Positions 1 through 64,000 are shown, counted from the stretch's first letter. The stretch: DNA of 64,000 nt from Candidatus Saccharimonadota bacterium (GCA_009785325.1 WQWN01000003.1:24450-88449), one strand, 5' to 3'. The notes: generated by a model from the sequence alone, not told the origin. Numbers and translations: made by a program.

Positions 1-206
1 CCCTCATACCTTAGTTCCGCTAACTCATTATTCATCTCCGCAGCGAGTGTCCGCAAGCTCTCAACCTCATTCCTTTGATCTATAAACTTCCAAACAAAAA
101 CTCCTGTTGCCACCGCCAGACAAACTACTATAATACTTAAAACTGCCATCAATTTACACTTCTTACCCTCTTTTCTCCCTCGTATAGCTTGCTCTTCTTG
201 CACCAT
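1..206 (-). CDS. hypothetical small membrane-anchored protein; its 3' end runs off the window
   Basis: ATG (rc of 204-206) is preceded by GGAGG (rc of 210-214) and TATAAT (rc of 229-234). My translation is MVQEEQAIRGRKEGKKCKLMAVLSIIVVCLAVATGVFVWKFIDQRNEVESL..., with one hydrophobic helix. Not in the supplied ORF track. Confidence 0.35.
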   Translation of the reverse strand, partial: MVQEEQAIRGRKEGKKCKLMAVLSIIVVCLAVATGVFVWKFIDQRNEVESLRTLAAEMNNELAELRYE

Positions 207-356
207 TAACCTCCTTATACTTTTCTTCATTATACTTATAACTTCACTATACCCCTACACCTATTTTATTCAGTTCCTCAATTACCCGCGCCGTCCCTTC
301 AGGAAATACCCCAGCTCAGACAACTCCTCTCTCACCTCTACCTCCTCACCCATTAC

Positions 357-1316
357 CTAATCCCTCTTCAACATCACCATAAACGCCTCACTCGGAATAT
401 CCACCTTCCCAATCCTTTTCATCCGTTTCTTCCCCTTCGCCTGCTTCGCCAGCAACTTCTTCTTCCGCGAAACATCCCCACCGTACAGATACCCCGTCAC
501 ATCCTTCCGAAACGCCCCGAGCGTCTCCCGCGCAATAAATTTCCCCCCAATCGCCGCCTGCAACGCCACCTCGAAATTCTGCCGCGGAATCACTTCCTTC
601 AATTTCTTCGTCATCTCTCGTCCCAGCGCCAAAGTTTCCGACCGATGCGCCATCACAGATAATGCCGACACCATCTCGCCAGCCACATAAAAATCCACCC
701 TCACCAAATCCTCCGCCCGATAATCATCCAACTCATAATTAAACGTCCCATACCCACTCGTCACACTCTTCAGCTGATCATAAAAATCCGTCAACAAATT
801 CGCCATCGGCGCCTCAAAACTAACAAGCGCCCGCCCCTCAATATACCCCAAATTCTTCTGCACCCCCCGCTTCGCCACCACCAACTGTATAACTACGCCT
901 ACATATTCTTTCGGCACAATTATCTCACCCTTGATCCAAGGCTCACGAATCTCAGCCACCTTCGACACATCCGGCAGGTCCGACGCCGACTTAATATCCA
1001 ATTCCTCCCCGCTACTGAGAGTCACATGATAATCCGTCGAAGGATTCGTCACAATCAAATCCAGATCAAACTCCCGCTCCAGTCTCTCCTTAATTATATC
1101 CATATGCAAAAGCCCAAGGAAACCAATCCTCATCCCATATCCCAAAACTGGCGAATTCTCCGGCTCAAACTGTAGCGCCGAATCCGACAACGCCAACCTC
1201 TCCACCGCCTCCTTTAGGTCCTTATACTGATCATTCGACACCGTAAAAAACCCCGCATAAACAAACGGTTTAACTTCCTTATACCCCGGCAACGGCTCGA
1301 CAATTACTCTACCCAT
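357..1316 (-). CDS. lepA: elongation factor 4 (LepA), C-terminal half only (domains III, V and the LepA C-terminal domain)
   Basis: LPGYKEVKPFVYAGFF, GFLGLLHMDIIKERLEREFDLDLI and YGGDVSRKKKLLAKQAKGKKRMKRIGKVDIP match canonical LepA from about residue 290 to the C-terminus. It has its own ATG. Confidence 0.9.
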   Translation of the reverse strand: MGRVIVEPLPGYKEVKPFVYAGFFTVSNDQYKDLKEAVERLALSDSALQFEPENSPVLGYGMRIGFLGLLHMDIIKERLEREFDLDLIVTNPSTDYHVTLSSGEELDIKSASDLPDVSKVAEIREPWIKGEIIVPKEYVGVVIQLVVAKRGVQKNLGYIEGRALVSFEAPMANLLTDFYDQLKSVTSGYGTFNYELDDYRAEDLVRVDFYVAGEMVSALSVMAHRSETLALGREMTKKLKEVIPRQNFEVALQAAIGGKFIARETLGAFRKDVTGYLYGGDVSRKKKLLAKQAKGKKRMKRIGKVDIPSEAFMVMLKRD

Positions 1317-1325
1317 CTGACATCT

Positions 1326-1334
1326 ATTCTACCA
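1326..1334 (-). promoter_or_regulatory. extended -10 (TGGTAGAAT) 9 nt upstream of the lepA C-fragment ATG; leaderless-type
   Basis: The rc of attctacca at 1326-1334. The ATG is at 1316 with no SD between them. Confidence 0.5.
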
Positions 1335-1371
1335 CCTCTATTTCACCCCTACAACTCCACCAGGTGCGTTA

Positions 1372-1794
1372 TCACAACTCGAAATCTTCCAACGTCAGAT
1401 TACAATAATACTTCCCTCGCCTCGCCGTAAATTTCAACACACAATAATCAGGATCCGTCACTCCCTCCGCATAATAAATATGATCTCCCCTCTTCCACAC
1501 TTCCTTCTTCACCGCCTCATCCTCCAACACCTCCATTTTCCCCACCAACATCACCCCTTGATACTTCCACGGTCTCTGCTCATAAAAATAAATGCAAGCC
1601 TTCGGATTTTCTCGCCACTGCTTCACCCTCTCCGAACTCGTATTTGTCGTAAACCAAAACTCCCGCACACCACTCCGCTTTCTTGGTGGCAGCATCGCCT
1701 TCATATTCGGAAAACCCTCTCCGTCCACCGACCCCACAAAAGCCACCTTCGACTTCGCCACCAACTTCTCTACTTTCTTAATCACACTACTCAC
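1372..1794 (-). CDS. pyridoxamine 5'-phosphate oxidase-like FMN-binding split-barrel protein
   Basis: The 140-aa length and the pattern VAFVGSVDGEGFPNMKAM...CIYFY...GVMLVGKMEVLED are typical of the PNPOx / general-stress-26 family. Confidence 0.6.
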   Translation of the reverse strand: MSSVIKKVEKLVAKSKVAFVGSVDGEGFPNMKAMLPPRKRSGVREFWFTTNTSSERVKQWRENPKACIYFYEQRPWKYQGVMLVGKMEVLEDEAVKKEVWKRGDHIYYAEGVTDPDYCVLKFTARRGKYYCNLTLEDFEL

Positions 1795-3066: not shown

Positions 3067-3073
3067 GCACTAC

Positions 3074-3079
3074 ATTATA
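3074..3079 (-). promoter_or_regulatory. -10 TATAAT 7 nt upstream of the def ATG (leaderless-type)
   Basis: The rc of attata at 3074-3079. It lies directly after the terminator at 3090-3122. Confidence 0.5.
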
Positions 3080-3089
3080 CACTCCTTCT

Positions 3090-3122
3090 ATAAAAATGAG
3101 CCGCATTTTTCGAATGCGGCTC
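3090..3122 (-). terminator. intrinsic terminator (10-bp perfect stem GAGCCGCATT/AATGCGGCTC, 5-nt loop, followed by a T-tract on the minus strand)
   Basis: Stem 3098-3107 pairs with 3113-3122. The minus-strand continuation is ATTTTTAT (rc of 3090-3097). Confidence 0.75.
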
Positions 3123-5012: not shown

Positions 5013-5014
5013 CC

Positions 5015-5983
5015 CTACTTCCCCTCTCCGAAATACTTCTTCAAACTCACCGTATCTCCCACTCGCGCATCCCGCGTCGTCTTCAAATTCGTCACGATAT
5101 ACCCAATTTCTCCTGTCCCTAACTCATCCATCGGCATCATCCCTGGGCTCAACTTCCCAATCTCCAACGCCAACCCTGAAACCTCCGCCGCCATCATCCG
5201 CACCGCATCCCCCTTTCTCAACTTCCCATCCACTACCCTCACATAAAGCACTACTCCGCGATAATCATCATAATACGAATCAAAAATCAACGCCCGTAAA
5301 GGCCCTTCCGTATCACCAGTAGGCGCAGGTACTCGCTCCACCACCGCATCCAACACCTCTTTCACCCCCATTCCCGTCTTCGCCGAAATCTTCAAAATCT
5401 CATCCTCCCCACACCCCAACAAATTCATCACCTCCTTCGAAATCTTCGGCACATCCGCCGCTGGCAGGTCAATTTTATTTAGCACAGGAATTATCTTCAA
5501 ATCCTGCTCCATCGCCAGATATACATTCGCCAAAGTCTGCGCCTGAATCCCCTGACTCGCATCCACCACCAGAATCGCCCCCTCGCACGCCTGCAAACTC
5601 CGACTCACTTCGTAACTAAAATCCACATGCCCTGGCGTATCAATCAAGTTCAGTTCATAACTACCATTCAACGATTTTATATCTTCGATACTATGCGAGG
5701 AATCAGGAGTAGCGGAGTGAGCGGTATTTGACATACCGCGATCGAGCAACGCATCTGATGACAAAGTAGAGTGCGAAGCTACGAAATCGTACTTCATCCT
5801 CACCGGCGTCAATTTTATCGTAATCCCCTTCTCCCTCTCCAGCTCCATCGAATCTAGTAGCTGCTCTTTCATCTCTCGCTTATCCACCGTTGACGTCATC
5901 TCCATCATTCTGTCCGCCAGCGTCGACTTCCCATGATCAATATGCGCAATTATGCAAAAATTTCTGATCCGATCCAAACTCAC
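5015..5983 (-). CDS. lepA: elongation factor 4 (LepA), N-terminal half only (GTPase domain plus domain II), carrying a ~35-aa insert
   Basis: [30 protein letters not shown] and LNKIDLP are present. It ends ...[17 protein letters not shown], at the domain II/III linker. Confidence 0.9.
5669..5773. repeat. in-frame, bias-breaking insert in the LepA GTPase domain (putative RPE/MITE-like coding insertion)
   Basis: Encodes [35 protein letters not shown] between conserved KYDF.. and ..[11 protein letters not shown]. It is G-rich on the + strand, unlike its surroundings. It shares AGCTACGAAA (5777-5786) with the insert at 36613-36750. Confidence 0.45.
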
Positions 5984-12288: not shown

Positions 12289-13428
12289 TTAACCTTCCAA
12301 TTCTATCACATCTCGCCCCAGTTTCACCAACACGTCACCAGGCAAATTAAACTTCTTCCCATTCTCATAATTTCTAATCGCATCCAAAAACCGCAAAATC
12401 TGCTCCCTCATCGCCCTCACACTATTCACCTCCAACCATCCACGCAAAATCTCCACCGCCACATCATCATCCATCCCTCGATAAGACTCCCGCTGCACCA
12501 CATCCTCACCCTCCACGATCAGCCCCACGATTTCATCAATCTCCCGCTTCAACTTCAGCTGATTCTCATATAAAGCGAAAATTTTATCTCGGCACAAGCC
12601 ACTCTCATTTGACTGGGATTTCGCCAAGAGTGACGACTGAACGAACTCCATTCCGCGCCCAGGCGGACGAGAGTGTCTTGAAGACGATCGTAACCTCTTT
12701 CTCACTCGATTCCTCAAATAATCCTGACTACTATTCGTCGAATCCTCCCGCCACTCCAGTCCATTCCTCATCGCATACTCCAAAATCTCTTCCTTCCACA
12801 CCCCCAGCATCGGCCGCACTACCCCAGGACTATCCAGCGGCACCAGCCCCCTCCACCCCGTCCCCCGGATCAAATTTATCGCAACCGTCTCCACTAAATC
12901 ATCCGCATGATGCCCCGTCCAAATCTCCCCATCCTCACCCGCCACTTCCCATAAAAATCTATATCTTCTCTCCCTCGCCAACTCCTCACTCGCCCCCGCA
13001 CCCAACTCCTCTTTCCGACTCACGAACTCCACTCCGTATCTCTCTGCCAGCCCCCTCACAAACTCCTCATCCTCATCGCTATCTTCCCTGATCCCATGGT
13101 TAAAATGCGCAATTATCAAATCTGATAATTTCTCGCACTCTAGACAAGCCGAGAAGCTTCTGTTGGTTGGATTCTGAGATGTTTTTAACCTGTCTGACGT
13201 CAAGCACTCTAAACTCGCCGAGAGACTTACGTTGCTTGAGTGAAGAAATGTCTTTAGCTTTTCTGAGCTCAGAACTTTAGTCTCATTGCGAGAGTTTACG
13301 TGCGAGAAGTCAGACAAATTACAGACACATGCTGCCGCCATATCCAGCATCACCACCGAATCCACCCCCCCACTCACCGCCAAAACCACCCTCCTTCTCT
13401 CCCTATCTTTCGCCAATTCATTCGTCAT
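12289..13428 (-). CDS. tilS: tRNA(Ile)-lysidine synthase, carrying two atypical inserts
   Basis: The PP-loop VLAVSGGVDSVVM, IIAHFNHGIR, GHHADDLVET and REDSTNSSQDYLRNRVR are present. Confidence 0.8.
   Translation of the reverse strand: MTNELAKDRERRRVVLAVSGGVDSVVMLDMAAACVCNLSDFSHVNSRNETKVLSSEKLKTFLHSSNVSLSASLECLTSDRLKTSQNPTNRSFSACLECEKLSDLIIAHFNHGIREDSDEDEEFVRGLAERYGVEFVSRKEELGAGASEELARERRYRFLWEVAGEDGEIWTGHHADDLVETVAINLIRGTGWRGLVPLDSPGVVRPMLGVWKEEILEYAMRNGLEWREDSTNSSQDYLRNRVRKRLRSSSRHSRPPGRGMEFVQSSLLAKSQSNESGLCRDKIFALYENQLKLKREIDEIVGLIVEGEDVVQRESYRGMDDDVAVEILRGWLEVNSVRAMREQILRFLDAIRNYENGKKFNLPGDVLVKLGRDVIELEG
12595..12690. repeat. in-frame bias-breaking insert in tilS (second, C-proximal)
   Basis: Encodes about SSSRHSRPPGRGMEFVQSSLLAKSQSNESG right after the conserved DYLRNRVRKRL. 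It is G-rich on the + strand and contains GTGACGAC. Confidence 0.35.
13126..13329. repeat. in-frame bias-breaking insert in the tilS PP-loop domain (~68 aa) with internal repeats
   Basis: Lies between MLDMAAA and DLIIAHFNHG. It has an internal direct repeat (13135-13157 vs 13204-13226, 18/23 identical) and a perfect 14-bp palindrome TTCTGAGCTCAGAA (13261-13274). It shares CCGAGAGACT (13218-13227) with the ABC-F insert. Confidence 0.45.
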
Positions 13429-13430
13429 TG

Positions 13431-13439
13431 TGCTACAAT
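13431..13439 (+). promoter_or_regulatory. extended -10 TGCTACAAT 8 nt upstream of the ATG at 13448 (leaderless-type)
   Basis: Seen directly. No SD lies between the motif and the ATG. Confidence 0.55.
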
Positions 13440-13443
13440 TATC
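13438..13443 (-). promoter_or_regulatory. -10 GATAAT 9 nt upstream of the tilS ATG, overlapping the divergent + strand -10
   Basis: The rc of attatc at 13438-13443. Confidence 0.4.
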
Positions 13444-13447
13444 TCAT

Positions 13448-14419
13448 ATGTCAGGTGGGCAAAAAACCAAATCAAATAATCTCGAGTCAAACGACGCCGA
13501 AACGCTGTTCCAGCAGCTCATCGACCTCGTCCGCACGCAGAACCTCCGCGACATCCACCTCGACCCCCGCGACGGCCACTACCTCATCCGCACCAAATCT
13601 TCCACCGCTCGCCTCGCTACTCACGCCGAGATTTCCAAAGTCCAAGCCACCGACCTCATCGACCTCCTCTTCATAAAATCTCACCTTCACCCCTCCAGTC
13701 GCCCCATCCCTCAGGACGCCCGCCTCTCCCACGCTAACTTCCTCATCCAACTCACCACTCTTCCAACTATCCTCGGACCAAAAATCTTCCTCCACTTCAC
13801 TGACCAGACCAAACTCACACGTGACCTCTCCAAACTCGGCTTCACCCCAGACCAACTCCCCATCGCCGAATCAATCACAAAACTCCCCTCCGGACTCATT
13901 CTCGTCCTCGGCGCCGGCAAAACCACCACGATGTTCTCTCTCCTCTCTCTTTTCGACGCAAGCAAGCTCAGCATCTCCACCGTCGAAACTCGCCACACCT
14001 ACCGCCTCCCAGGAGTCAACCAATTCATCGATACCACAGGTCAAATCTCCCGCCAAGAACAAGCCTTCGCCGCCGCCATGCGCCAGCATTCTGACGTCAT
14101 CCTCCTCAGTCAAATCGACTCGACTCGCCTCGCCGAACTCTCCCTCGACGCCGCCAGCAACCGCCGCATCATTATCACCTCACTCCCCATCACCGATCCT
14201 TACTCCGCCGCCGACTTCCTCACCCACCTCGGCACCACTCCGTTCCTCACCCTTCACAACCTCCGCCTCGTTATCTCTCAGCAACTCGTCCCCACCACCG
14301 ATTCCACCTCTTCTTTCACCGGTCGCTTCGACCTCCTCGAGATCAACGACCATTACCGTCAACTTTTCCTCGCTGGCCTCACCCCCACAGAGATCCGCCA
14401 CACCCTCAACTCCAAATAA
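13448..14419 (+). CDS. PilB/GspE-like secretion ATPase homolog with degenerate catalytic motifs (probable pseudo-ATPase)
   Basis: LILVLGAGKTTTMFSLL replaces the Walker A. MRQHSDVILLSQID replaces ..DPDVIMVGEIRD. NRRIIITSL replaces TGHLVLSTLH. The start is taken at the first ATG after the tilS start. Confidence 0.55.
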   Translation: MSGGQKTKSNNLESNDAETLFQQLIDLVRTQNLRDIHLDPRDGHYLIRTKSSTARLATHAEISKVQATDLIDLLFIKSHLHPSSRPIPQDARLSHANFLIQLTTLPTILGPKIFLHFTDQTKLTRDLSKLGFTPDQLPIAESITKLPSGLILVLGAGKTTTMFSLLSLFDASKLSISTVETRHTYRLPGVNQFIDTTGQISRQEQAFAAAMRQHSDVILLSQIDSTRLAELSLDAASNRRIIITSLPITDPYSAADFLTHLGTTPFLTLHNLRLVISQQLVPTTDSTSSFTGRFDLLEINDHYRQLFLAGLTPTEIRHTLNSK

Positions 14420-14458: not shown

Positions 14459-16243
14459 ATGCTCCTCCACGTCCAAATCACAGAAAAATCCTTCGGCTCC
14501 AAAAGCCTCTTTTCTCACATTAATTTTTCCGTCAACGACGGCGAAAAAATCGGTATCATCGGACGAAACGGTATCGGCAAAACCACTATCTTCAACATCC
14601 TCTCAGGCAAAGACACTGACTTCACAGGCGAAATCATCCAGCGCCGCGGCACCACTGCCGTCGCTACCTCCCAGGAATACCACGATGTCAAAAACCTCAC
14701 TACCACCCAGTACATCCTCTCCGGCCTCCCCGATTACGCCCGCCTCTCTGGGATCATCAACAACTTCTCCGAAATCACCACTCCCACTCACAAACAACTC
14801 ACCGAATTCTCCGACGCCCTCGAACTTTTTTCAAACAAAGACTACTACCACATCGAAGATCAAGTCCGCGAAGAACTCAAATCTTTCCAGCTCGAGTCAC
14901 ATGCCGACCAGCTTTTCTCCTCCCTCAGCGGCGGCCAAAAACGCCTCAGCGAAGTCATCAAAATCATGCACTCAAACGCCCATATCGCCCTCGTCGACGA
15001 ACCAACCAACTTCATGGACTACGTCGCCAAAAACCAATTCATCGAATGGATGAAGTCCGCCCCCGAAGCCATTCTCATCATCACCCACGACCGCGACGTA
15101 CTCCGCGAAGTCGACCGCATCATCGAAATCAAAGACCAAACAGCCATCAACTACAAAGGTAACTACGAATTTTATCTCCGCGAAAACACCTCCCGCACCT
15201 CAAACGCCATGACTGACTACGAGCTCGTCGAGCGCCGCATCGAGAATCTCAAACAAAAAATCCTCGACTACCAGCGCCTCAAAGAAAAAGCCCGCAACCC
15301 CGCCACTATTCAGCAGTTCAAACGCCTCGAAAACACCTCTCGAAAAGAACTCTCCGAACTCCAAAAAACCGAAAAACCCAACTTTTGGATCGACCGCAGT
15401 AGCGTCGAGCAGCTCGGCTACAAAGACACCGACCGCTACGACAAATACAAAGCCAAAAACGTCAAACTCGCCCTCAAATCCACCGAATCAAAATCTAAAA
15501 AGCTAATTGCCGAAGCCACCGACCTCTCCGTCGGCTACGACTCCCCCCTCTTCAAAAACATTAATTTCCAACTCCGCGAAGGCGAAGCTCTCGAAATCCG
15601 CGGCCGCAACGGAGCCGGCAAAACCACTCTAGTTCGCGCACTACTCTCGCTCAGCGATACAGACAGTAAGCGCAAGCTATTAGTTTCCGAGAGACTGGAA
15701 ACATCTGTGACGACAGATGTGGCTGAAATGGATGAGGCTACTCCGCATGACGATGCGCGAGTACCTCAGAATGCGCTCTCGGAAGCTAATGGGCTTAGCA
15801 GTCCGCTTACAATTTTCCACGGCGAATCCCACCTCGACCCTCACGTCCGCCTCGGCATCTACCACCAGGAAGTCGACACAAGGTACTTCGACCTCCTCCT
15901 CCCAGACGCCATCGACTGCCTCCACCAAGACGCAGGAATCATCATCAACGATCGCCGCATCCGCCAACTCATGTCCGACTATCTTTTCACCGACTCCGAC
16001 CGCGATGTTCTCGTCAAAAATCTCTCTGGTGGCCAAAAAGCCCGCCTCCAAATCATCGCCATGCTCGCCAACGACCCCACTCTCCTCATCCTCGACGAAC
16101 CCACCTCTCACCTCGACCTCCCAAGCATCGAGGAGCTCGAGCAAGCCCTCCTCCGCTACCACGGCGCCGTCCTCTACATTTCCCACGACAACTACTTCCG
16201 TCACGCCCTCCCCGCCCAAGTCCTCCAAATCCCCGACCGCTAA
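14459..16243 (+). CDS. ABC-F family ATPase (two ABC domains, no TM domain), with an insert in the second domain
   Basis: GIIGRNGIGKTT, LSGGQKRL and ALVDEPTN are in domain 1. IRGRNGAGKTT, LSGGQKARL and LILDEPTSHLD are in domain 2. Confidence 0.85.
   Translation: MLLHVQITEKSFGSKSLFSHINFSVNDGEKIGIIGRNGIGKTTIFNILSGKDTDFTGEIIQRRGTTAVATSQEYHDVKNLTTTQYILSGLPDYARLSGIINNFSEITTPTHKQLTEFSDALELFSNKDYYHIEDQVREELKSFQLESHADQLFSSLSGGQKRLSEVIKIMHSNAHIALVDEPTNFMDYVAKNQFIEWMKSAPEAILIITHDRDVLREVDRIIEIKDQTAINYKGNYEFYLRENTSRTSNAMTDYELVERRIENLKQKILDYQRLKEKARNPATIQQFKRLENTSRKELSELQKTEKPNFWIDRSSVEQLGYKDTDRYDKYKAKNVKLALKSTESKSKKLIAEATDLSVGYDSPLFKNINFQLREGEALEIRGRNGAGKTTLVRALLSLSDTDSKRKLLVSERLETSVTTDVAEMDEATPHDDARVPQNALSEANGLSSPLTIFHGESHLDPHVRLGIYHQEVDTRYFDLLLPDAIDCLHQDAGIIINDRRIRQLMSDYLFTDSDRDVLVKNLSGGQKARLQIIAMLANDPTLLILDEPTSHLDLPSIEELEQALLRYHGAVLYISHDNYFRHALPAQVLQIPDR
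15653..15815. repeat. in-frame bias-breaking insert in ABC-F domain 2, containing a perfect hairpin
   Basis: Encodes SDTDSKRKLLVSERLETSVTTDVAEMDEATPHDDARVPQNALSEANGLSSP between the Walker A and the conserved IYHQE. The hairpin is ACATCTGT-GACG-ACAGATGT at 15701-15720. I counted G=45 and C=35 over 15653-15808. Codons are G-ending, while the host gene uses C/A-ending codons. Confidence 0.5.
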
Positions 16244-16932: not shown

Positions 16933-17703
16933 TTAGTTATCCTGCTCAGCCTGCCATCTTGCCAGTGCGTCTTCCAAGTAACGGAAGTTGCTCTTTTCGC
17001 CAGCACGCACCGTCGCCCAAAGCGGCAGTTCCGGGTTATCTCTATTCTCTTCGATCCACACTTCATACCGATCTCTCGGATCGACTACGATGCCATGGAT
17101 GATAGTGAGTGTCCCTGTCGCATCGTCAAAACCATACGACAAGATTACTCTGAGACCATCTCGCATGGCGGTCGTCACGGTTTCCTCATCTCCCGATCGA
17201 GTCGTCGTACGAATCAGATCGCGCATCTTCTGCGCGAACCACTCCGTATCCTCCGGAACTTGATGTGATTCATACCTCATATAGGCAGATCTCAGCGGCA
17301 CTTCCAATCCACCATCCATGAGCCAGTACTCTGGGCGCAAAAACCGCGCCTCGATGATACCGTCATAATGAATAATATTAACACTGGTCCCGCCTCCTGT
17401 TTTCGCAATGATCATTCCGTCCACCGGGCGAAGCAACAACGTGCCACGCTCGGTGTCATACCCGACAATCCTCAGATTGCCGAGGTTTCCCATTGCCCGT
17501 CCGTCACGGATACTGAGCGTATCCGCAATTTGCATGTAAACACAGTTTTGAGCCTCTTCCGCCACAGCCGGCGCCGACGGTATCTCCATCGTAACTCCAA
17601 CCGCATATACCGGCTGTCCTAAAGACACCATCCCCCATACACCCACACCGCCGAAAAGCACCAAACAAGCCAACATTACAGCCCCTACACGCCCTGCTTT
17701 CAT
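16933..17703 (-). CDS. hypothetical secreted protein (signal peptide), no recognisable family
   Basis: N-terminal MKAGRVGAVMLACLVLFGGVGVWG. Balanced G/C composition. Confidence 0.5.
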   Translation of the reverse strand: MKAGRVGAVMLACLVLFGGVGVWGMVSLGQPVYAVGVTMEIPSAPAVAEEAQNCVYMQIADTLSIRDGRAMGNLGNLRIVGYDTERGTLLLRPVDGMIIAKTGGGTSVNIIHYDGIIEARFLRPEYWLMDGGLEVPLRSAYMRYESHQVPEDTEWFAQKMRDLIRTTTRSGDEETVTTAMRDGLRVILSYGFDDATGTLTIIHGIVVDPRDRYEVWIEENRDNPELPLWATVRAGEKSNFRYLEDALARWQAEQDN

Positions 17704-17949
17704 AAGTAATTACCTCCTGAATAATAGTCGACTACCACAGGCAAAACGCCCTGAAGTAGATCCGCACGCCAACCTCTTACGATTAGCACACAAATCCACT
17801 TCAGGCCCCCAAACTAACTAAGTTCTAAAAGATCTAGCTCTCGCTCTTGTAAACATTCCTCATTTACAACTATCATTTTAGCATAAATAACCCCGCAAGT
17901 CAAGCTTAAACTTCTTTCAACCTCTGTCCACAATCTCAAAACAAAGATC

Positions 17950-17982
17950 AAAAGAAAAGGGACGCAGAAAAAACCGCGCCCC
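17950..17982 (-). terminator. intrinsic terminator related to the one at 16889-16916
   Basis: Stem GGGGCGC/GCGTCCC (17976-17982 / 17959-17965) followed by TTTTCTTTT on the minus strand. It shares the context ...GCGCCCCAAAT. Confidence 0.5.
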
Positions 17983-18000
17983 AAATCCCCACTCTCGCTA

Positions 18001-18651
18001 CTATCCAGCACCGCTGATCGCTGTGTTAATATCTTCCCCGTAGTAATCCCGATACCTCTCCCGAGCCCAGCGCTCATCACACATGTCTGCAACCCACTGT
18101 TTGAAGTCAAACTTCCATGGTCTAATTTGCAGAATTTCCAGTTCAGCTCCCGGTCTCCCGGTTATTGTGCCTTCCTCATCATACGCAAACCTTTCAGTCA
18201 CAACAAGGAGTGCCACGGTCATATTGTAGGAGGTGAGCATTGCAGTATTAATGATGTGTTCTTTGATGCTCTTGTTCCCATCATCTACACACTGCCTCCC
18301 GTTGAGTATAGTTTTCCCGCGTTTACGACGAAACCCATACACCTCAATGGCATAAACCGCCTGGCATATGCCTTCGCCTCCTTTTTCAGGCAGTGAGAAC
18401 TCCGGCTCCAGATCAAGCGCAGATTCAACCAAAACCTTCCTCTTGACTCCGAGAACATCCAGAAGATCTAAGTCCACCACAGCTTTTTCAGAGCCCTCCG
18501 CAGCTTCTCCGCTGCTCAGTTTTAAACTCCAGTACGGAGTTTCACTGTTTCTGTAGAAATACAGCCCAAACCGCCTCATTAACCGTTCTTCAGACCTCTT
18601 CAGTCCTTTCTTTCTTTTGCTATTACCGAAAATACCCAGCACAAAATCCAC
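18001..18651 (-). CDS. hypothetical protein (about 213-216 aa), no recognisable family
   Basis: Long ORF after GGAGGAGG. The start is ambiguous (GTG at 18651 or GTG at 18642). Confidence 0.5.
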   Translation of the reverse strand: MDFVLGIFGNSKRKKGLKRSEERLMRRFGLYFYRNSETPYWSLKLSSGEAAEGSEKAVVDLDLLDVLGVKRKVLVESALDLEPEFSLPEKGGEGICQAVYAIEVYGFRRKRGKTILNGRQCVDDGNKSIKEHIINTAMLTSYNMTVALLVVTERFAYDEEGTITGRPGAELEILQIRPWKFDFKQWVADMCDERWARERYRDYYGEDINTAISGAG

Positions 18652-35943: not shown

Positions 35944-37416
35944 GTGACCAAACCAAAGACACCCACTAATTCAACCTCCTCACCCACAAAAATAGTGAAT
36001 TTTTTGATAATTTCCACCTGTATCATCCTCTTCGGCCTCGCAATCCACACCCCTATCATGGTCTTTCTATCTTCACAATTCCCCGCTGCTACTATCTTCT
36101 TCCAAGCATGGAAAGAAATTCTCCTCGGCGCAAACACCATCCTCGCCATCTACCTCATCACTCGCCAAAAACTCTGGCACACCTTCCTCCACCACGCTGT
36201 CTTCCGCGCCTCCGTCATCTTCTGTGTCTTTGGTCTCGTCGTCGCCCTCCTCACTTTCCAAAACTTTCATTCATTCGCCGCCGGCCTCATGATCGGCTTC
36301 CGCTTTATCCTAATTTTCCTCCTCATCTTCACTATCCTCCACCTCTATCCATCCGCCAAAAACCTTTTCCTGAAAACTATCATCGCTGGTGCCACTCTCA
36401 TCCTCACCTTCGGTACACTCCAAGCTCTCATCCTTCCGCACGACGTCTTATCCCACATCGGCTACTCCGAATCCACCATCCTCCCCTACCAAACCGTCGA
36501 CCAGAACTACGATTTCATCCGCATCAACTCCACCCTCCGCGGCCCCAACCCTCTCGGCGCCTTCGCTCTCATCACCCTCACCTTCGCCACTACGTACCTA
36601 TTATATTCATGGGTACAGAGACACAAAAACACACGTTCAGCACGCAATTCATCCTGTCGTATTACGCAGGACGGCGAGTACTTAGCTACGAAACCTGTGA
36701 CGACAGGATTGAGGAGCGGCGACGGGATGGATGGAGTGTTGAAATTACGTGTATTTTCTACCTTCCTCATCCTCACCTCTCTCATCTGCATCTATTATAG
36801 CTTTTCTCGCGCTGCTCTCCTCGCCTCTGTCATCTCTACCGCCACAGCCGCCTTCATCACTCTCTTCCACTTACGTCCCCAACTCATCAAAATCCTCCTC
36901 CCTACCATTCTCCTCCCTATCGCCCTTATCGCAACCACGATATTCATCCACCGCGACCACGCCTTCGTCCAAAACGTCTTTTTCCGCACCAACTACTATT
37001 CCACCAGTCCCGAAACCTCCGACGAACAGCGCATCGACTCACTCCAGCACGGCATTACTCAGATCTTCCAAAACCCTCTCGGCGTAGGTGTCGGCACCAC
37101 CGGATCTGCCTCACTTTACACCGACCACCCCATCATCCTCGAAAACCAGTTCCTCTTCGTCTCTCACGAAATCGGCATCTTCGGTCTCGTCATCTTCCTA
37201 TATATTCTCACTCTCATCTTCATCCCTCTCGTCAGACGCCACGACCCACTATCTGTCGCTACCTCCTCCGCTCTTGTCGGCCTCCTTGTTATTGGTCTCT
37301 TCCTGCCCGTCTTCGCCGATGAAACCGTCTCTATGATCTTCTTCACCCTCGCCGCAATCGCACTAACTACAAAAGGAGTAAAGTATGCCCACAAAAAAGC
37401 AAAAAGAACTTCTTAA
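35944..37416 (+). CDS. O-antigen ligase/polymerase-like (Wzy_C family) membrane protein carrying an insert
   Basis: About 10-12 TM helices. The YYSFSRAALLA...HNQFL-like ENQFLFVSHEIG pattern is present. The start (GTG at 35944) is uncertain. Confidence 0.6.
   Translation: MTKPKTPTNSTSSPTKIVNFLIISTCIILFGLAIHTPIMVFLSSQFPAATIFFQAWKEILLGANTILAIYLITRQKLWHTFLHHAVFRASVIFCVFGLVVALLTFQNFHSFAAGLMIGFRFILIFLLIFTILHLYPSAKNLFLKTIIAGATLILTFGTLQALILPHDVLSHIGYSESTILPYQTVDQNYDFIRINSTLRGPNPLGAFALITLTFATTYLLYSWVQRHKNTRSARNSSCRITQDGEYLATKPVTTGLRSGDGMDGVLKLRVFSTFLILTSLICIYYSFSRAALLASVISTATAAFITLFHLRPQLIKILLPTILLPIALIATTIFIHRDHAFVQNVFFRTNYYSTSPETSDEQRIDSLQHGITQIFQNPLGVGVGTTGSASLYTDHPIILENQFLFVSHEIGIFGLVIFLYILTLIFIPLVRRHDPLSVATSSALVGLLVIGLFLPVFADETVSMIFFTLAAIALTTKGVKYAHKKAKRTS
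36613..36750. repeat. in-frame bias-breaking insert in the O-antigen-ligase-like gene, colinear with the ABC-F insert
   Basis: Encodes VQRHKNTRSARNSSCRITQDGEYLATKPVTTGLRSGDGMDGVLKLR in a loop between TM helices. Shared words: CTGTGACGACAG (36695-36706; stem CCTGT/ACAGG), GCGAGTAC (36674-36681) and AGCTACGAAA (36684-36693). Confidence 0.5.
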
Positions 37417-52677: not shown

Positions 52678-52752
52678 TCCCCGGTAGCTCAATGGTGGAG
52701 CAAGAAGCTGTTAACTTCGAGGTTACTGGTTCGAGTCCAGTCCGGGGAGCCA
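52678..52752 (+). tRNA. tRNA-Asn (anticodon GTT) with encoded CCA
   Basis: Folded by hand. Acceptor TCCCCGG/CCGGGGA; D arm GCTC..GAGC; anticodon loop CTGTTAA; T arm ACTGG-TTCGAGT-CCAGT; discriminator G followed by CCA. Confidence 0.93.
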
Positions 52753-52885: not shown

Positions 52886-53341
52886 ATGGCACGACTAACA
52901 CACCACGAGGTTAAGATGTATATAGTAAAAATTAAAGTCGATAAATCAGAAATAGACGGCAGGGGAGTTTTCGCATCGGAAAGGATTAAGAAAGGTAAAA
53001 CGGTTTGGGTTTACGACCCAGAACATGATCTTTCATTTGACCAAGAAGAATTCGATAGGCTTGACTCCGACGAGAAAGAGCGGCTTCATCATTCAGCATA
53101 CCTGTCGCCATGGACAGGCTTGCGGATCAGCCCGCCAGCAGGTGATCCAGCCAACTACACGAACCATAGCACCGAGAATAATTTATCAGTACGTTACGAT
53201 AAAAGCGTTTCGCCAGAACTATATTTCGTAGCAAATCGAGATATTGAAGTCGGCGAAGAACTTACGAATAACTATCATGAGTTCGATGAAATAACTAGAA
53301 AGACGAAACCAGGCTGGGCAAAGGAAGTGGATGCGAATTAA
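52886..53341 (+). CDS. SET-domain protein (putative lysine methyltransferase)
   Basis: IDGRGVFASERIKKGKTV, ANYTNHSTENN (NHS motif) and VGEELTNNYHEF (ELxxxY motif) are present. The start may instead be the ATG at 52916. Confidence 0.65.
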   Translation: MARLTHHEVKMYIVKIKVDKSEIDGRGVFASERIKKGKTVWVYDPEHDLSFDQEEFDRLDSDEKERLHHSAYLSPWTGLRISPPAGDPANYTNHSTENNLSVRYDKSVSPELYFVANRDIEVGEELTNNYHEFDEITRKTKPGWAKEVDAN

Positions 53342-58934: not shown

Positions 58935-61853
58935 CTAATACCTACACCGCGCTCGCCGCCAAACCACTCTTCCAAACACTCCAATCACCAACGCCCCCAC
59001 AGCAACTATCAACATCCCCATACTTTCTAGCACTAGCCTACCTCCATGCCCCGTATTTGGCGGCAACGGTACACCAGCGCCAGGTATATCCTCGACATAA
59101 ACAAGCTCCCACTGTGCAAACAACACCACATCCATTCCATATATAACAATAGTATCACCAGGAGAATATATACTTCCACTACCATCAACCTCCATACTCC
59201 ATCCAGTAAAATCATATCCTGGCTTCTCAATCTCAGTAGCAGGTAACGTCAATACTGTATGCCCAGTACCATTTACAAACAGTCCTACTGTATGACTACC
59301 CACACCCCCATTAGCGTCATAAGTCACCCTAAACAGCTCAAATTCATCCTCACTAAGCCCTACGAAGTTAATATCATAATTATTGATGAGATGAACGTAT
59401 CCGCTACCTCCAATGATACTACTGCTGGCAAATTCTATGTTGGTATATGTACCAGCGATAGCTGGAGGATTAAACGCACCTAGCCCCGCACTATTACCAG
59501 AAAACACCGTATCGACGCCTATAGTTAGGTTTTGATAGCAGTCACTAGTTAGATCTGAGTAATCATTACTACCACCCCATCCAAAGCCGTTGAAGTACTC
59601 AGTGAAAATACCTCCGCCTTCACGACCTGCAGAGTTGCCAGCTATATTGCCACCTGAGACATATACGACAGAATACATAGAAACATAAATGCCGCCGCCA
59701 TAAGTAGACGCTATATTATTAGTGATACTGCCATTGTGCATATTGAAGATTCCACCATCGCTGTTCCGCACACCAGCTCCGTGATTTGCGGTATTGCCAC
59801 TGATCTCCCCACCATACATATTAAATGCGCCACCCTCGTCATTCCCTACGCCACTTCCGATATTCTCACTAATCTCACCTCCATACATAGTGAACACTCC
59901 CTCCCAGCCCCCGTTCCATACACCACCAATATTTCCAGTGTTCTCGTTAATCTGACCATCATACATATTAAATATACTTACGTTCCTTACACCTCCACTA
60001 CTACTCCATCCGCTAGCTGTATTCTCACTAATTTCACCTCCATACATAGTGAACACTCCCTCCCAGCCCCCGTTCCATACACCACCGCCAACCTCCCAGC
60101 CAGTAGCGATATTTTCACTAATCTCACCCCCATGCATGGTAAACGTACCCATATAATTCCCTACACCGCCCCCATTTTCCCAGCCACCTCCAGTATTCCC
60201 GGTAATCTCACCATCCCGCATAATAAACGTACCACTATTACTCACGCCTCCACTTTCTCCGGTATTCTCACTAATCTCCCCATCGTACATAGTAAACGTA
60301 CCCCTATTCCCTACACCGCCTCCACCCTCACTACATACTCCAGTATTCCCGATAATCTCACCATCCCGCATAATAAACGTACCACTATTACTCACGCCTC
60401 CACTTTCTCCGGTATTCTCACTAATCTCCCCATCGTACATAGTAAACGTACCCCTATTCCCTACACCACCTCCATTTTCCCAGCTGCCTCCAGTGTTCCC
60501 TCTAATTTCCCCATAATACATAGTAAACATACCCCAGTTAGTCACACCGCCACCGCCATCCCCGTCACTATTCTCATTAATCTCACCACTATACATAGTG
60601 AAAGTACCACTATTTTCTACACCACCCACGCCATTCCTATTAATTTCTCCGTCATACATAGTAAATGTACCCCCGTTAGTCACACCGCCAGCAAAGAATG
60701 AATCCCCCATATTCTCATTAATCTCACCGTCCTTCATAATAAAAGTACCGTCATTTACTACTCCGCCACCCCAATTTCCGATAATTTCACCACTATACAT
60801 AGTAAACTCACCTCTATTCCCTACACCTCCTATCCCACGTCCGCCACTATTTTCACTTATCCTGCCAGCATACATAGTAAATATACTAGTAGCATCATTC
60901 TCTATACCACCAGCGTCATGATCACCATGATTCCTAACGATCTCCCCGCCACGCATAGTAAACGTACTTCCACTAACATTCCTTACGCCACCAGCCGCGT
61001 TGAGGTCATCAGTAATATTACCCGCAATACTACCTCCATACATGGTGAATATACCACCCCAATTCCACACACCACCACCCCACGTAGATCTATTACTGCT
61101 AATCTCACCGCCACGCATAGTAAGCACTCCTCCTCCATTCCATAAACCATGAGCATTACGACTTATCTCACCTCCATATATATTTATTGTGCCACCCTCA
61201 CTCCACACACCATAAGTATTCCGTATAATCTCACCCCCACGCATGACAAAAGTACCACTATTCCGCACACCATACTCACTCCCCCAAATACCTCCTCCAT
61301 CGATCACGCCATCATACATTACAAACACGCCTTCATTCCACACACCATAGCCCCCACCACTTCCACTCCCCCTAATCTCGCCACTCCTCATAGTAAACAC
61401 ACCTCCATCATTCACAGTAACTCCCCTTCTCCTCCAAAGCGTAGGTCCATCTAGCGTAAAGTGTCCATCTACTATAATCTGCAAAGACCAACCCCCAATC
61501 ATACCAATACTAATGCTATGAGTACCCGAAATCGTAATATTTGCCCCATCTGGAATAATTATTGAGGAGGTTGTGTGAATATTGCCTAGTAGCTGTATAT
61601 TTGTAGCTACGGTTCCCGCATCCACGATAGCCTGCTCAAGCTCCGAGAAAGTAGAAACTAGTACAAGAGCTGACGGAGTAATAGATTCATAGGTAGGCTC
61701 AAAAATAGCATCATATTCCGAAGCTATAGCATATTCCGAAAAATCATACACATTGGAAACAATCACCCGCGCCGAAAACGCAAGTACCATAGCAAAAATA
61801 ACCAAAAACGATACCCTACTCATAGAGCCACCAAACCTACTAATCCTTAGCAT
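58935..61853 (-). CDS. large surface protein: ~25 degenerate beta-helix-type repeats (G.F.M..GEI..N), a Listeria-Bacteroides (Flg_new) repeat and an LPxTG-like sorting signal
   Basis: Signal peptide present. The repeats match GGV.N.GTFTMY.GEIS.NTG. FRVTYDANGG...PGYDFTGWS is Flg_new-like. The C-terminus is LPPNTG (rc of 59049-59066), followed by a hydrophobic helix and RRARCRY. The start is ambiguous (61889, 61853 or 61823). Confidence 0.7.
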   Translation of the reverse strand: MLRISRFGGSMSRVSFLVIFAMVLAFSARVIVSNVYDFSEYAIASEYDAIFEPTYESITPSALVLVSTFSELEQAIVDAGTVATNIQLLGNIHTTSSIIIPDGANITISGTHSISIGMIGGWSLQIIVDGHFTLDGPTLWRRRGVTVNDGGVFTMRSGEIRGSGSGGGYGVWNEGVFVMYDGVIDGGGIWGSEYGVRNSGTFVMRGGEIIRNTYGVWSEGGTINIYGGEISRNAHGLWNGGGVLTMRGGEISSNRSTWGGGVWNWGGIFTMYGGSIAGNITDDLNAAGGVRNVSGSTFTMRGGEIVRNHGDHDAGGIENDATSIFTMYAGRISENSGGRGIGGVGNRGEFTMYSGEIIGNWGGGVVNDGTFIMKDGEINENMGDSFFAGGVTNGGTFTMYDGEINRNGVGGVENSGTFTMYSGEINENSDGDGGGGVTNWGMFTMYYGEIRGNTGGSWENGGGVGNRGTFTMYDGEISENTGESGGVSNSGTFIMRDGEIIGNTGVCSEGGGGVGNRGTFTMYDGEISENTGESGGVSNSGTFIMRDGEITGNTGGGWENGGGVGNYMGTFTMHGGEISENIATGWEVGGGVWNGGWEGVFTMYGGEISENTASGWSSSGGVRNVSIFNMYDGQINENTGNIGGVWNGGWEGVFTMYGGEISENIGSGVGNDEGGAFNMYGGEISGNTANHGAGVRNSDGGIFNMHNGSITNNIASTYGGGIYVSMYSVVYVSGGNIAGNSAGREGGGIFTEYFNGFGWGGSNDYSDLTSDCYQNLTIGVDTVFSGNSAGLGAFNPPAIAGTYTNIEFASSSIIGGSGYVHLINNYDINFVGLSEDEFELFRVTYDANGGVGSHTVGLFVNGTGHTVLTLPATEIEKPGYDFTGWSMEVDGSGSIYSPGDTIVIYGMDVVLFAQWELVYVEDIPGAGVPLPPNTGHGGRLVLESMGMLIVAVGALVIGVFGRVVWRRARCRY
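60191..60490 (-). repeat. two near-identical 150-bp tandem units inside the surface-protein gene
   Basis: 60191-60318 and 60341-60468 differ at about 2 positions by direct comparison. Both encode GGVGNRGTFTMYDGEISENTGESGGVSNSGTFIMRDGEI. Confidence 0.85.
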
Positions 61854-61996
61854 TAAAACCTCTTCTCTCGCAGGATTTCGCACACGCACAACAGCTCACA
61901 GCTACGCACGATTACATTTTTATAATATTATTTATTTTGAGAATTCCACGACTCTATACACCAAACATTAGCATACTTCTTACTGAAAGGCAAAAT

Positions 61997-63304
61997 TTAC
62001 GGTGTCAATCTGTTCAAATCTCGTGGGAACAATTGCGCTTCTTTGATATTCGCTAGCCCCATCGTCTTCTGTACTAGTCGATCCACCCCAAAACCACATC
62101 CACCATGCATCGGCAGCCCAAACCTAAACGCCTGCAAATAGTATTTATATCCGGGCTTCTCTACATCCAGCCCTGCCGCTTTCATCTGCTCGATCATCTT
62201 CTCGTAGTTATTCTCTCGCAAAGGACATGTCGCAATTTCGAGACCTCGATACAGCAGATCCGCCCACATCGTCACACCTCTCTCCGCATCTACCTTGTGA
62301 TAAAACTTCGCCGCTTCAATCGGAAATTCCGTCGCAAACACCAGATCACTCCCTAGTTCCTTCCGCGCATATTCACAAATAAACCTCTCTTCATCTGGTG
62401 TCAAATCTTTCTCGCCAATCGTATCTGTTCCCGTCTTTTTTGTATACATCTCATGGATCTCCGCAATCGTAAACTCCGGAATTTCATCTGTCAATTTTAG
62501 CTCGGGCGCCTGCAAACTCTTCAGCTCTTCTGCATACTTCTCATATGTCTCTCTGAGCACAAACTTCGTCATATCTCCCACCATCTTCCTCACCTCCGCA
62601 TGATCCTTCACAAACCCCATCTCAATATCTAACATCGTCAATTCCGTCACGTGCCGCGTCGTCGCACTCGGCTCTGCCCGATACGCATGCCCGATCTCAA
62701 ACACCCGCTCAAAAGCCCCCACCATGATCTGTTTATAAAATTGTGGACTCTGCGCCAACGTCGCTTCTTTTCCGAAATAATCCAGCGTAAACACTTCCGC
62801 TCCACCCTCCGTCGCTGCTCCGAGAAGTTTCGGCGTATCAATTTCCACAAATTCTTTATCAATCAAAAATTCACGAATCTTCTGCGTCATCCCCGCACGG
62901 ATCTTAAAGATTTTCTGCTCCTGCAAGTTTCGCACGTTCAACACTCGCGTCTCAAACAGCGTATCTAAATGCTCCGGTTTGTGACTGATCGGCTTATCGA
63001 TCTCAATGATCGGCTCCTCCGTCACTGATGCCAACACCTCCACTTTCACATCGTGCAGTTCCACTCCACCAGGCGCCCGCGCATCTTCACACACTTTACC
63101 CGTAAACTCCACTACCGTGCCTATCTGCATCCCACGCAATTTTTCCATTTCGTCTTTATCTTCGATTAGCGACTGTACCAGTCCACTCCTATCTCGCACT
63201 GAGATAAAGTTCAACCCTCCTAGCAGCCTCTTCTTATGCAACCACCCCTGCACACTTACTTCCTTGCCGACTTTCTCAGCTAGCTCTCGTACTAATGTCC
63301 TCAT
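61997..63304 (-). CDS. aspS: aspartate--tRNA ligase, archaeal/type-2 form (possibly non-discriminating)
   Basis: Class IIb motifs are present: FEIGHAYRAEPSATTRHVTELTMLDIEM, GLPMHGGCGFGVDRL and the C-terminal LFPRDLNRLTP. It is 435 aa. Confidence 0.8.
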   Translation of the reverse strand: MRTLVRELAEKVGKEVSVQGWLHKKRLLGGLNFISVRDRSGLVQSLIEDKDEMEKLRGMQIGTVVEFTGKVCEDARAPGGVELHDVKVEVLASVTEEPIIEIDKPISHKPEHLDTLFETRVLNVRNLQEQKIFKIRAGMTQKIREFLIDKEFVEIDTPKLLGAATEGGAEVFTLDYFGKEATLAQSPQFYKQIMVGAFERVFEIGHAYRAEPSATTRHVTELTMLDIEMGFVKDHAEVRKMVGDMTKFVLRETYEKYAEELKSLQAPELKLTDEIPEFTIAEIHEMYTKKTGTDTIGEKDLTPDEERFICEYARKELGSDLVFATEFPIEAAKFYHKVDAERGVTMWADLLYRGLEIATCPLRENNYEKMIEQMKAAGLDVEKPGYKYYLQAFRFGLPMHGGCGFGVDRLVQKTMGLANIKEAQLFPRDLNRLTP

Positions 63305-63450
63305 GATTCTCTCCTAATTTTAAGTCTGATTCTTTGGCTTTTGTCTCGGCTAATTATGGGTCGTTCGTCACTAGTCCGCCGCCTAGCGACCGACCCCGCA
63401 ATTTCTATCGTTATTTTGCCAAAAAAATCTCATGACCACATCATACTATA

Positions 63451-63843
63451 TTAGTGTAATTTCTTCCACTCCCGATCCCACTTCCGCACCACTCCGAACA
63501 CCATCTTCATTTCTTTTAGATAATCGTTATCCATCACTCTCCCCACCTCCTTCAGATCATCCTTCATTTTCCGCTTAATTACCTCTAGTTCTTTGTCACT
63601 CGCATAGAACATCCTCTGTCCACCATACATCATCCACCCATAATACTTGTTCTCCCACCACTCATCATGCCAAAACACAGTTCTCGGCTGCCTTGCACCT
63701 ATGTTATCCCAGATCAACTTCTCCAGTACAGGAATCAAGTCGTCCAGTTCCTTCTTTAATTCCTCTGTGTATTCTCTCTCGAAATTAAACCCAATCGTTA
63801 ACCGCGCTTTTTTGCACGGACTCTTTTTCATTTTCTTCTTCAT
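63451..63843 (-). CDS. hypothetical protein (130 aa, Trp/Lys-rich)
   Basis: ORF after an AAAGGAGAG SD. No recognisable family. Confidence 0.45.
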   Translation of the reverse strand: MKKKMKKSPCKKARLTIGFNFEREYTEELKKELDDLIPVLEKLIWDNIGARQPRTVFWHDEWWENKYYGWMMYGGQRMFYASDKELEVIKRKMKDDLKEVGRVMDNDYLKEMKMVFGVVRKWDREWKKLH

Positions 63844-63904
63844 AATCTCTCCTTTGAAATTGAGCAGTTTTCGACATACTCAGGTCGCGATAGTGTATTC
63901 TCAA

Positions 63905-64000
63905 CTACCTCTTCCAACTCCCACGCACTCCCCATCCAAAGTTCACCCTCACTCGCCTCAAGTTCTCATCATTCAACCGTCGCTGCAGCTCTTTAAACTG
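63905..64000 (-). CDS. C-terminal end of an unknown CDS entering from beyond the window
   Basis: The open frame ...QFKELQRRLNDENLRRVRVNFGWGVRGSWKR* uses the G-ending codons typical of minus-strand genes. Confidence 0.25.
   Translation of the reverse strand, partial: QFKELQRRLNDENLRRVRVNFGWGVRGSWKR

Follow-up and report, generated by a model that had tools for sequence, protein, structure and literature searches.

A strand bias of constant sign runs through the 64,000-nucleotide stretch of DNA analysed here (referred to as the window), which corresponds to contig C3:24450-88449 of a 678-kb, seven-contig metagenome-assembled genome (MAG) of Saccharibacteria (TM7), deposited under Candidatus Saccharimonadota bacterium (GCA_009785325.1). 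The + strand of the window is C-rich and the - strand G-rich, and the bias follows the DNA strand, is strongest at fourfold degenerate (4-fold) sites and spills over into the composition of the encoded proteins. The same polarity continues across the predicted replication origin (oriC) and across the fossil of an ancestral terminus, it is confined to one clade of four lineages, and its direction is towards G. The explanation that is somewhat favoured for this pattern is effectively one-directional replication, combined in the four-lineage clade with an amplified strand-specific mutation pressure towards G.

On its + strand the window holds 22516 C, 8910 G, 17187 A and 15387 T, giving a GC skew of -0.433, an AT skew of +0.055 and an approximately 2.5-fold disparity between C and G. 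Negative GC skew was found in 63 of the 64 1-kb windows, the exception being the one at 32001 (+0.01), and just 3.2% of 150-bp windows had a skew above zero. A preliminary description, made from the sequence alone, had called the + strand C-rich and G-poor in genes of both orientations; its base counts (C=42 and G=14 at 1-120, C=23 and G=7 at 47521-47580) are exact, and the bias extends over the window as it proposed. Across 80 Saccharibacteria loci around the FtsH gene, the absolute skew had a median of 0.14 and a maximum of 0.347, against -0.43 in the window. The bias itself is the principal feature of the window:

1..64000, both strands: resident strand bias, with a C-rich + strand and a G-rich - strand; about 38 genes lie on the - strand and about 24 on the + strand.

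The per-gene analysis ties the bias to the DNA strand instead of the direction of transcription. GC skew at third codon positions (GC3 skew), read on the coding strand of each gene, ranges from about -0.6 to -0.97 in + strand genes of the window and from +0.7 to +0.93 in - strand genes, and because it reverses in this way between the two orientations, the + strand is C-rich whichever way the genes point. Genome-wide, GC3 skew is +0.61 for genes on the G-rich strand and -0.55 for those on the C-rich strand, which decomposes into a strand component of about 0.58 and a transcription component of about 0.03. The G/C disparity is not due to the distribution of genes between the strands: of the open reading frames (ORFs) called across the genome, 367 belong to the G-rich and 250 to the C-rich strand, and the sign of GC3 skew tracks the DNA strand in both sets.

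Codon and amino acid usage are divided along the same line. The opposite codon sets described earlier for + and - genes were recovered for every codon listed, exemplified by GGC (0.47) in C-strand genes versus GGG (0.40) in G-strand genes, GCC (0.42) versus GCG (0.62), GTC (0.50) versus GTG (0.59) and AAA (0.82) versus AAG (0.60). Genes on the G-rich strand are 1.2- to 2.1-fold enriched in M, V, E, G, W and R, while those on the C-rich strand are enriched in H, P, T, Q, I, S and N. The split in protein composition predicted from the window thus stands for G/V/E/R/W/M and for T/P/H/S/N/Q, whereas Leu, which had been placed with the + strand residues, differs only weakly between the strand classes. 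In a principal component analysis (PCA) of 256 homology-verified genes, the first component (PC1) of relative synonymous codon usage (RSCU) carried 62% of the variance and separated genes by strand with an area under the curve (AUC) of 0.999, and the first component of amino acid usage separated the strand classes with an AUC of 0.97.

The bias also accounts, as had been suggested, for the many long stop-free antisense ORFs: the C-rich + strand of the window has 25 stop trinucleotides per kb and the - strand 54, and open frames of at least 100 codons number 130 versus 63. Calling genes by the longest ORF fails on the C-rich strand for this reason, and one genuine gene of the window was missed by it because the bias creates longer spurious frames:

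13286..14419, + strand: PilT/T2SSE-type ATPase gene (Pfam T2SSE, 1.2e-27), a real gene on the C-rich strand overlapping longer spurious frames.

As greedy longest-ORF calling is error-prone in such DNA, the key statistics were redone on 256-292 homology-verified genes. Methods that build on codon usage or amino acid composition, such as the detection of horizontal gene transfer, phylogeny and binning, are misled by the bias as well, and the branch of this genome in the FtsH tree is long.

The MAG is estimated to be 76% complete with 0.22% contamination. Its FtsH, encoded at 10405-12261 of the window and used as the marker query, shares 65-71% identity with that of Saccharimonadaceae, and no other species of the genus is represented in the genome set compared. 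Two public assemblies built from other runs, one from ENA and one from Logan, match 20 kb of the sequence with 1 mismatch; as these independent assemblies of the same strain differ by a single base over this length, an assembly artefact is ruled out as the source of the composition. Each of the seven contigs keeps one sign throughout, with absolute skews of 0.27-0.41. With every contig turned to its G-rich orientation, the genome contains 32.5% G, 15.8% C, 25.6% A and 26.1% T (GC skew 0.346, AT skew -0.011), that is, an approximately two-fold disparity between G and C on one strand and no comparable disparity between A and T.

Continuity of the polarity beyond single contigs was established from exact terminal overlaps, of 96 bp between the reverse complement of C6 and C7 and of 109 bp between C7 and the reverse complement of C3. 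The joined scaffold, rc(C6)-C7-rc(C3) (rc, reverse complement), is designated S1 and spans 199,180 bp; all 40 of its 5-kb windows are positive (0.15-0.54). These overlaps provide evidence independent of the orientation of the complete 778-kb genome of a relative, G012, in which the overlap-joined pairs are also neighbours (721 to 729 kb and 94 to 95 kb). As a separate observation, C1 and C2 share their first 123 bp, and C2 shares its last 123 bp with the reverse complement of C4. These repeats suggest a possible two-copy unbinned element between C4, C2 and C1, which would then follow the G012 order in the same orientation relative to the G-rich strand, the join itself being unproven.

The predicted origin region lies at about 89 kb in S1, where a cluster of DnaA boxes (TTTTCCACA, TGTGGATAA and TGTGGAAAA, at C7:22328-22454) is located between dnaA on the minus strand (C7:20935-22272) and rpmH on the plus strand. 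No change of sign in the skew was observed at this predicted oriC: the 1-kb windows on both sides of the cluster (C7 22.3-22.5 kb) range from +0.25 to +0.39, and all 89 kb to its left in S1 are positive. In S1 the window lies rightward of the predicted oriC, at a distance of about 22-86 kb. Its minus strand is both G-rich and gene-rich and has the same orientation as forks that leave the predicted oriC.

The ancestral terminus is recognizable on C1, which is collinear with 368-567 kb of G012. Along this contig, the balance of gene orientations turns from 40:9 to 8:32 at about 100-120 kb, equivalent to about 480 kb in G012, the position of the terminus. The classical sign change expected at a terminus was not seen in C1 despite this flip; the skew falls from about 0.33 to 0.23 with its sign retained and stays at +0.20 to +0.26 where the orientation turns. 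Beside this, three DnaA-box-like 9-mers (TTTGGATAA, TGTGGAAAA and TGTGGAAAA) were noticed within 110 bp at C1:120995-121105, outside the window, in a synteny gap exactly at the fossil terminus where gene orientation flips; the trio could be due to chance, or could act in regulation or titration. With the generic consensus, no convincing dif site was found in G012 or in the genome studied here.

These observations bear on the earlier proposal that the window lies on one replichore with its minus strand as the leading strand. The placement of the window on one replication arm holds, since the window begins some 22 kb rightward of the predicted oriC and its gene-rich strand is the G-rich one. The accompanying suggestion that cumulative skew on the full genome would locate the origin and the terminus failed, in that the sign changes within no contig, nor at the predicted dnaA-oriC or the ancestral terminus. 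Because the skew flips at neither place, 'one replichore' seems to hold for all of the assembled DNA, and the proposal is therefore only partly supported, being right for the window and too conventional for the genome.

The comparison with G012 shows what has been altered. G012 carries a classical two-arm skew of modest size that switches near 750 kb and at 380-480 kb, and its switch coincides with the dnaA orthologue. The contigs were ordered along G012 by tblastn of 292 conserved genes. Once they had been turned to the G012 orientation, the G-rich strand was always the G012 + strand, and at the level of genes the correspondence held for 263 of the 292. On the left arm of G012 (480-755 kb), 57 of the 62 orthologues encoded on the minus strand lie on the C-rich strand in the genome studied here, and about 70% of the conserved genes of this former left arm are on the C-rich strand.

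A high-skew genome, G041, served as control for this comparison and keeps 21 of 28 left-arm minus-strand orthologues on its G-rich strand; as it thereby retains the classical polarity, the synteny test is able to discriminate both patterns. For the same reason, G041 was rejected as a second case of single polarity. This genome (L079, JAISJL01) is labelled Candidatus Nomurabacteria Hs463_bin113, although its FtsH groups with Saccharibacteria on a long branch; it combines a GC skew of 0.2-0.35 and classical two-arm polarity with a gene order much rearranged compared with that of G012.

The distribution of the trait was followed in an FtsH tree with closer relatives recovered from a large protein collection, in which the genome studied here with P0002, and P0003 with P0004, form one clade (support 100/97). 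Local skew at the FtsH locus is 0.43 in the genome studied here, 0.47 in P0002, 0.38 in P0003 and 0.35 in P0004, and outside the clade 0.12 in P0005 and 0.09 in P0008. The sister and intermediate lineages likewise carry left-arm genes on the C-rich strand, as reflected in the GC3 skew of SecA (-0.73 in the sister, -0.35 in the intermediate lineage) and DnaG (-0.77 and -0.46), while in a normal relative the locus skew is +0.07. As the sister and intermediate lineages share this arrangement, the reversed left arm is a derived trait common to the four-lineage clade, within which the strength of the bias is graded.

The direction of the pressure is everything towards G on one strand. At 4-fold sites read on the G-rich strand, G makes up.48-.54, A.24-.30, T.167 and C.05, and intergenic DNA has a skew of +0.29. 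When the lineages are compared, the 4-fold composition of the normal relative is G.155, A.33, C.13 and T.38; G reaches.525 in the intermediate lineage,.64 in the genome studied here and.81 in the sister lineage, where A and T are both.084 and C is.022. Left-arm genes mirror the trend with C of.56-.76, and the G+C content at 4-fold sites (GC4) climbs from 0.28-0.42 to about 0.8 across the lineages. Cytosine deamination is expected to enrich G+T on one strand. At 4-fold sites the G-rich strand is not T-rich, with A at.24-.30 versus T at.167, and with A equal to T in the sister lineage. Amino acid replacement fluxes relative to G012 reveal a loss of C from the G-rich strand by all three routes and a gain of G, but do not discriminate between mutation mechanisms.

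According to the favoured explanation, a very strong strand-specific mutation pressure would drive unconstrained sites to G on one strand and to C on the other. Replication would be effectively one-directional in the four-lineage clade, in which the circle would be copied solely by the fork that departs from oriC in the direction of rpmH and the window, so that one strand would always be the leading strand, and the usual leading-strand excess of G, already high in the order, would be amplified several-fold. Replication direction as the cause, the G-rich strand as the leading strand and the biochemical source of the towards-G pressure are all matters that we infer from the patterns above. The more far-reaching version has a slightly less than even chance of being correct, namely that the clade converted its sole, dnaA-dependent chromosome to one-directional (or otherwise same-strand-biased) replication together with a previously undescribed towards-G process that brought silent sites to about 80% G on one strand and remodelled proteins by strand.

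Several points weigh against the favoured explanation. The genome is a draft in which S1 (199 kb), the block C4-C2-C1 (408 kb) and C5 have no physical links, and the relative orientation of these three units rests on synteny with one relative; at 76% completeness, about 115 kb matching G012 567-682 kb are missing. The former arms differ in 4-fold skew, at about.87 for the right and about.72 for the left, which could reflect incomplete equilibration after the polarity change or some remaining activity of leftward forks. Furthermore, one-directional replication alone explains neither the magnitude of the bias nor a trend towards G instead of G+T, and no change in gene content that explains the trait was found among the repair and replication genes examined.

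Among these genes, a search of 26 Saccharimonadales genomes found no MutS (PF00488), suggesting that Saccharimonadales lack mismatch repair, an absence that may explain why GC skew is generally high in the order. Uracil-DNA glycosylase (UDG) is present and of the same type as in several relatives with normal skew, and DnaQ-like exonucleases and one alpha subunit of DNA polymerase III (Pol III) are present as well. HhH-GPD was not found in the genome, and is also lacking in 15 of 25 relatives. The N-terminal domain of Fpg/MutM (PF01149), present in 30 of 30 relatives, was not found in the genome, in which the region corresponding to its G012 neighbourhood (668-682 kb) is largely unassembled. 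The loss of Fpg was rejected as a cause, given this unassembled syntenic neighbourhood and the retention of Fpg in the high-skew G041. An apparent Fpg fragment at the start of C1 proved to be ribosomal protein S13.

The strongest of the rival explanations, although itself unlikely, is a whole-chromosome asymmetry that is not set by an ordinary fork, arising either from rolling-circle or strand-displacement replication, in which one strand would stay single-stranded for extended times, or from a strand-specific repair or insertion bias, for example one nucleotide being preferred opposite lesions. Chen et al. 2020 (PMC7111523) name such bacterial skew patterns 'rolling circle', and the magnitude of the bias, which resembles that of organelle genomes, would fit such a process, as would the trend towards G alone, best seen in the sister lineage and unlike that of cytosine deamination. 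However, canonical dnaA, dnaN, primase, Pol III alpha and an oriC with DnaA boxes are all retained, and the polarity of the right arm is the leading-strand polarity of classical relatives. In addition, the 4-fold skew forms two plateaus that match the former arms and shows no smooth gradient with distance from the origin.

Improbable to a greater degree is classical bidirectional replication with both switch points hidden from view, in which C4-C2-C1 would be inverted relative to S1 and the origin and terminus would lie at unassembled junctions, away from dnaA. The missing links between S1, C4-C2-C1 and C5 and the missing equivalent of G012 567-682 kb leave room for it. Yet the origin would then have to be at least 89 kb from the DnaA-box cluster between dnaA and rpmH, whereas the switch in G012 is found at the dnaA orthologue. 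The roughly 89 kb to the left of dnaA and the second half of C1 still have most of their genes on the C-rich strand, a large inversion is required although the contigs keep the G012 order, and the chance that two random switch points both fall outside the assembled 76% is about 0.06.

An origin of the bias in transcription or selection, whether as coding-strand asymmetry, translational codon preference or selection on amino acids, has very little probability left and is refuted by the per-gene analysis. The transcription component of about 0.03 in GC3 skew and the lower 4-fold skew of highly expressed ribosomal-protein genes (bin 350 kb) are in its favour, but the same DNA strand is G-rich whatever the gene orientation, the bias is strongest at 4-fold sites and present in intergenic DNA, and the first component of codon usage splits genes by DNA strand almost perfectly. 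An assembly, binning or sequencing artefact is the least credible of all and is likewise refuted, for although composition-based MAG binning could in principle gather contigs of similar skew, the independent ENA and Logan assemblies agree, estimated contamination is minimal, the proteins are conserved orthologues in the Saccharibacteria order (for example FtsH, 68-84% identity), and the same pattern occurs in three further lineages from other samples.

Against so uniform a background, places where the bias breaks stand out, and local loss of bias is a useful flag for inserted DNA. Four such stretches lie within genes of the window:

5622..5830, - strand: bias-breaking stretch in the gene for the GTPase half of LepA, with local skew up to +0.10; an insertion of about 41 codons, seen as a 41-residue gap in the alignment to the G012 orthologue.
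13095..13334, - strand: bias-breaking stretch in the N-terminal part of tilS, with G=52 and C=48 and a maximum 150-bp skew of +0.16.
15591..15838, + strand: bias-breaking stretch in a 594-aa ORF (14459-16243), a putative ABC-F ATPase according to the preliminary description, with a maximum 150-bp skew of +0.16.
36582..36815, + strand: bias-breaking insertion in a 490-aa membrane-protein ORF (35944-37416), with a maximum skew of +0.18; mostly a gap in the alignment to the G012 orthologue.

Because the stretches in lepA and in the 490-aa ORF coincide with gaps in the alignments to their G012 orthologues, both are lineage-specific insertions; the O-antigen-ligase/Wzy_C-like name of the latter ORF is a putative label given to it previously. 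The stretch in tilS covers residues 32-112 of the encoded protein and the G012 alignment starts at residue 96, at the C-terminal end of the stretch, implying that it may also be a lineage-specific insertion. A full-length orthologue of the 594-aa ORF was not found in G012.

Whole genes with weak or absent bias were identified as well:

28639..30240, + strand: RCC1-propeller/TIG surface-protein paralogue (Pfam WD40_RLD, RCC1 and TIG), with an overall skew of -0.16 and a GC3 skew of -0.63.
32140..33681, + strand: second RCC1-propeller paralogue (Pfam RCC1 and TIG), the least biased large gene of the window, with GC3 0.37, GC3 skew -0.43 and overall skew -0.01.
52678..52752, + strand: tRNA-Asn (GTT), detected by ARAGORN and Rfam.
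52886..53341, + strand: SET-domain gene (Pfam SET, 5.7e-16) with no strand bias, just 3' of the tRNA-Asn gene; GC3 skew 0.00, GC3 0.41.
58935..61889, - strand: 984-aa repeat surface protein (Flg_new/Listeria-Bacteroides repeat) with low GC3 (0.37) and weak bias, its GC3 skew being +0.32 versus about +0.8 in its neighbours.
16933..18651, - strand: two weakly biased ORFs, function not assigned, with GC3 skews of +0.32 and +0.23.

The two RCC1 genes illustrate that a low overall skew may have other sources. As their GC3 skew is still -0.63 and -0.43, the constraint imposed by a Gly-rich protein is part of their low overall skew. The RCC1-propeller/TIG paralogues are multi-copy and also present on C4 and C5, with DNA matches of 77-91% between contigs, and gene conversion among copies on opposite strands could keep their skew low. 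The SET-domain gene is a candidate recent acquisition, for which no G012 match was found over more than 60% of its length. A zero-skew gene directly 3' of a tRNA is a layout typical of integration sites. Neither of the two ORFs at 16933..18651 gave a Pfam match.

The idea put forward at the outset that the bias works as a built-in clock, with segments free of it being recent arrivals, is acceptable in a qualitative sense, as such segments are plausibly newer in the case of the insertions in lepA and the wzy-like gene and of the SET-domain gene. As a measure of time the clock is uncalibrated, and the RCC1 signal is in part the Gly-rich constraint.

The lepA gene of the window is also split; it occupies 357-1316 and 5015-5983 on the - strand, one of the halves encoding the GTPase part and the other the C-terminal part. 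The roughly 3.7 kb between them contain Peptidase_S51, def, HD_3 and PNPOx. A split lepA was likewise found in relatives whose FtsH is 71-84% identical (L153, L154/L155, L156 and L192), in which the cargo between the halves differs, consisting of one DNA_alkylation gene, an acetyltransferase, or DUF2726/HD/T5orf172. In G012, both halves map side by side.

Bacterial chromosomes are textbook cases of bidirectional replication and of Chargaff's second parity rule. With the classical skew of bacteria, represented by G012 and oral Nanosynbacter, the bias described here has in common that it is tied to the strand and not to transcription, that codon and amino acid usage depend on the strand, and that the G-rich strand of the right arm is the gene-rich one. 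It differs in being 3-7 times larger, with a GC4 skew of 0.8-0.9, and in the absence of a sign change at the predicted oriC or the ancestral terminus.

In magnitude, single polarity and the rewriting of protein composition by strand, the bias is comparable to that of animal and Galdieria mitochondrial genomes. These organelle genomes usually accumulate G+T on one strand, the deamination type, whereas here, at 4-fold sites of the G-rich strand, A is at least as frequent as T and the shift favours G alone. Among bacterial replicons, Xie et al. 2021 predicted 77 unidirectional large replicons, with Pseudoalteromonas chromids as the main group (PMC7858055), for which a GC skew of single polarity round the circle was taken to indicate one-directional theta replication. 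Most of these replicons are secondary, derive from plasmids and have plasmid-type origins and modest skew, in contrast to the sole, dnaA-dependent chromosome with extreme skew considered here. Bacterial genomes with 'rolling circle' skew patterns were also mentioned by Chen et al. 2020 (PMC7111523).

No report of this pattern for Saccharibacteria was found in the literature searched. The nearest known system is Ch65 (Candidatus Chazhemtobacterium aquaticus; Kadnikov et al. 2020, PMC7143001). Its genome holds 29.83% C and 14.97% G with similar amounts of A and T, both strands carry genes, and the cumulative skew is monotonic. The authors of that study proposed unidirectional replication for Ch65, and the trait was found in related UBA1400 Microgenomates (Collierbacteria and Beckwithbacteria) (PMC7143001); among complete genomes, a 2024 survey singles out Ch65 to illustrate strong G/C disparity (PMC11514846). 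Both are small genomes of the Candidate Phyla Radiation (CPR) with an approximately two-fold G/C disparity (here 32.5% G and 15.8% C), almost no A/T disparity, genes on both strands, no turning point in cumulative skew (here over the assembled DNA) and a trait restricted to a clade.

The genome studied here belongs to another class, Saccharimonadia, and is a draft, whose monotonic skew is seen over a 199-kb scaffold across oriC and over synteny-ordered contigs. Local values are more extreme than in Ch65, with -0.43 for the window and a value of 0.47 for the sister lineage. It is accordingly placed with the Ch65 kind, matching Ch65 globally and exceeding it locally, with monotonic skew observed over the assembled contigs and not over a closed circle. 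It constitutes a second, independent CPR lineage with strong G/C disparity, in which the effect is stronger than in Ch65. A further difference is that close relatives with classical skew, an intermediate lineage, a recognizable dnaA-oriC and a fossil terminus are available here, so that the change can be placed on a tree and the origin of one-sided replication and mutation becomes approachable by comparison; if the more far-reaching version of the explanation is true, the genetic switch could be mapped by comparing the classical sister lineages with the intermediate lineage.

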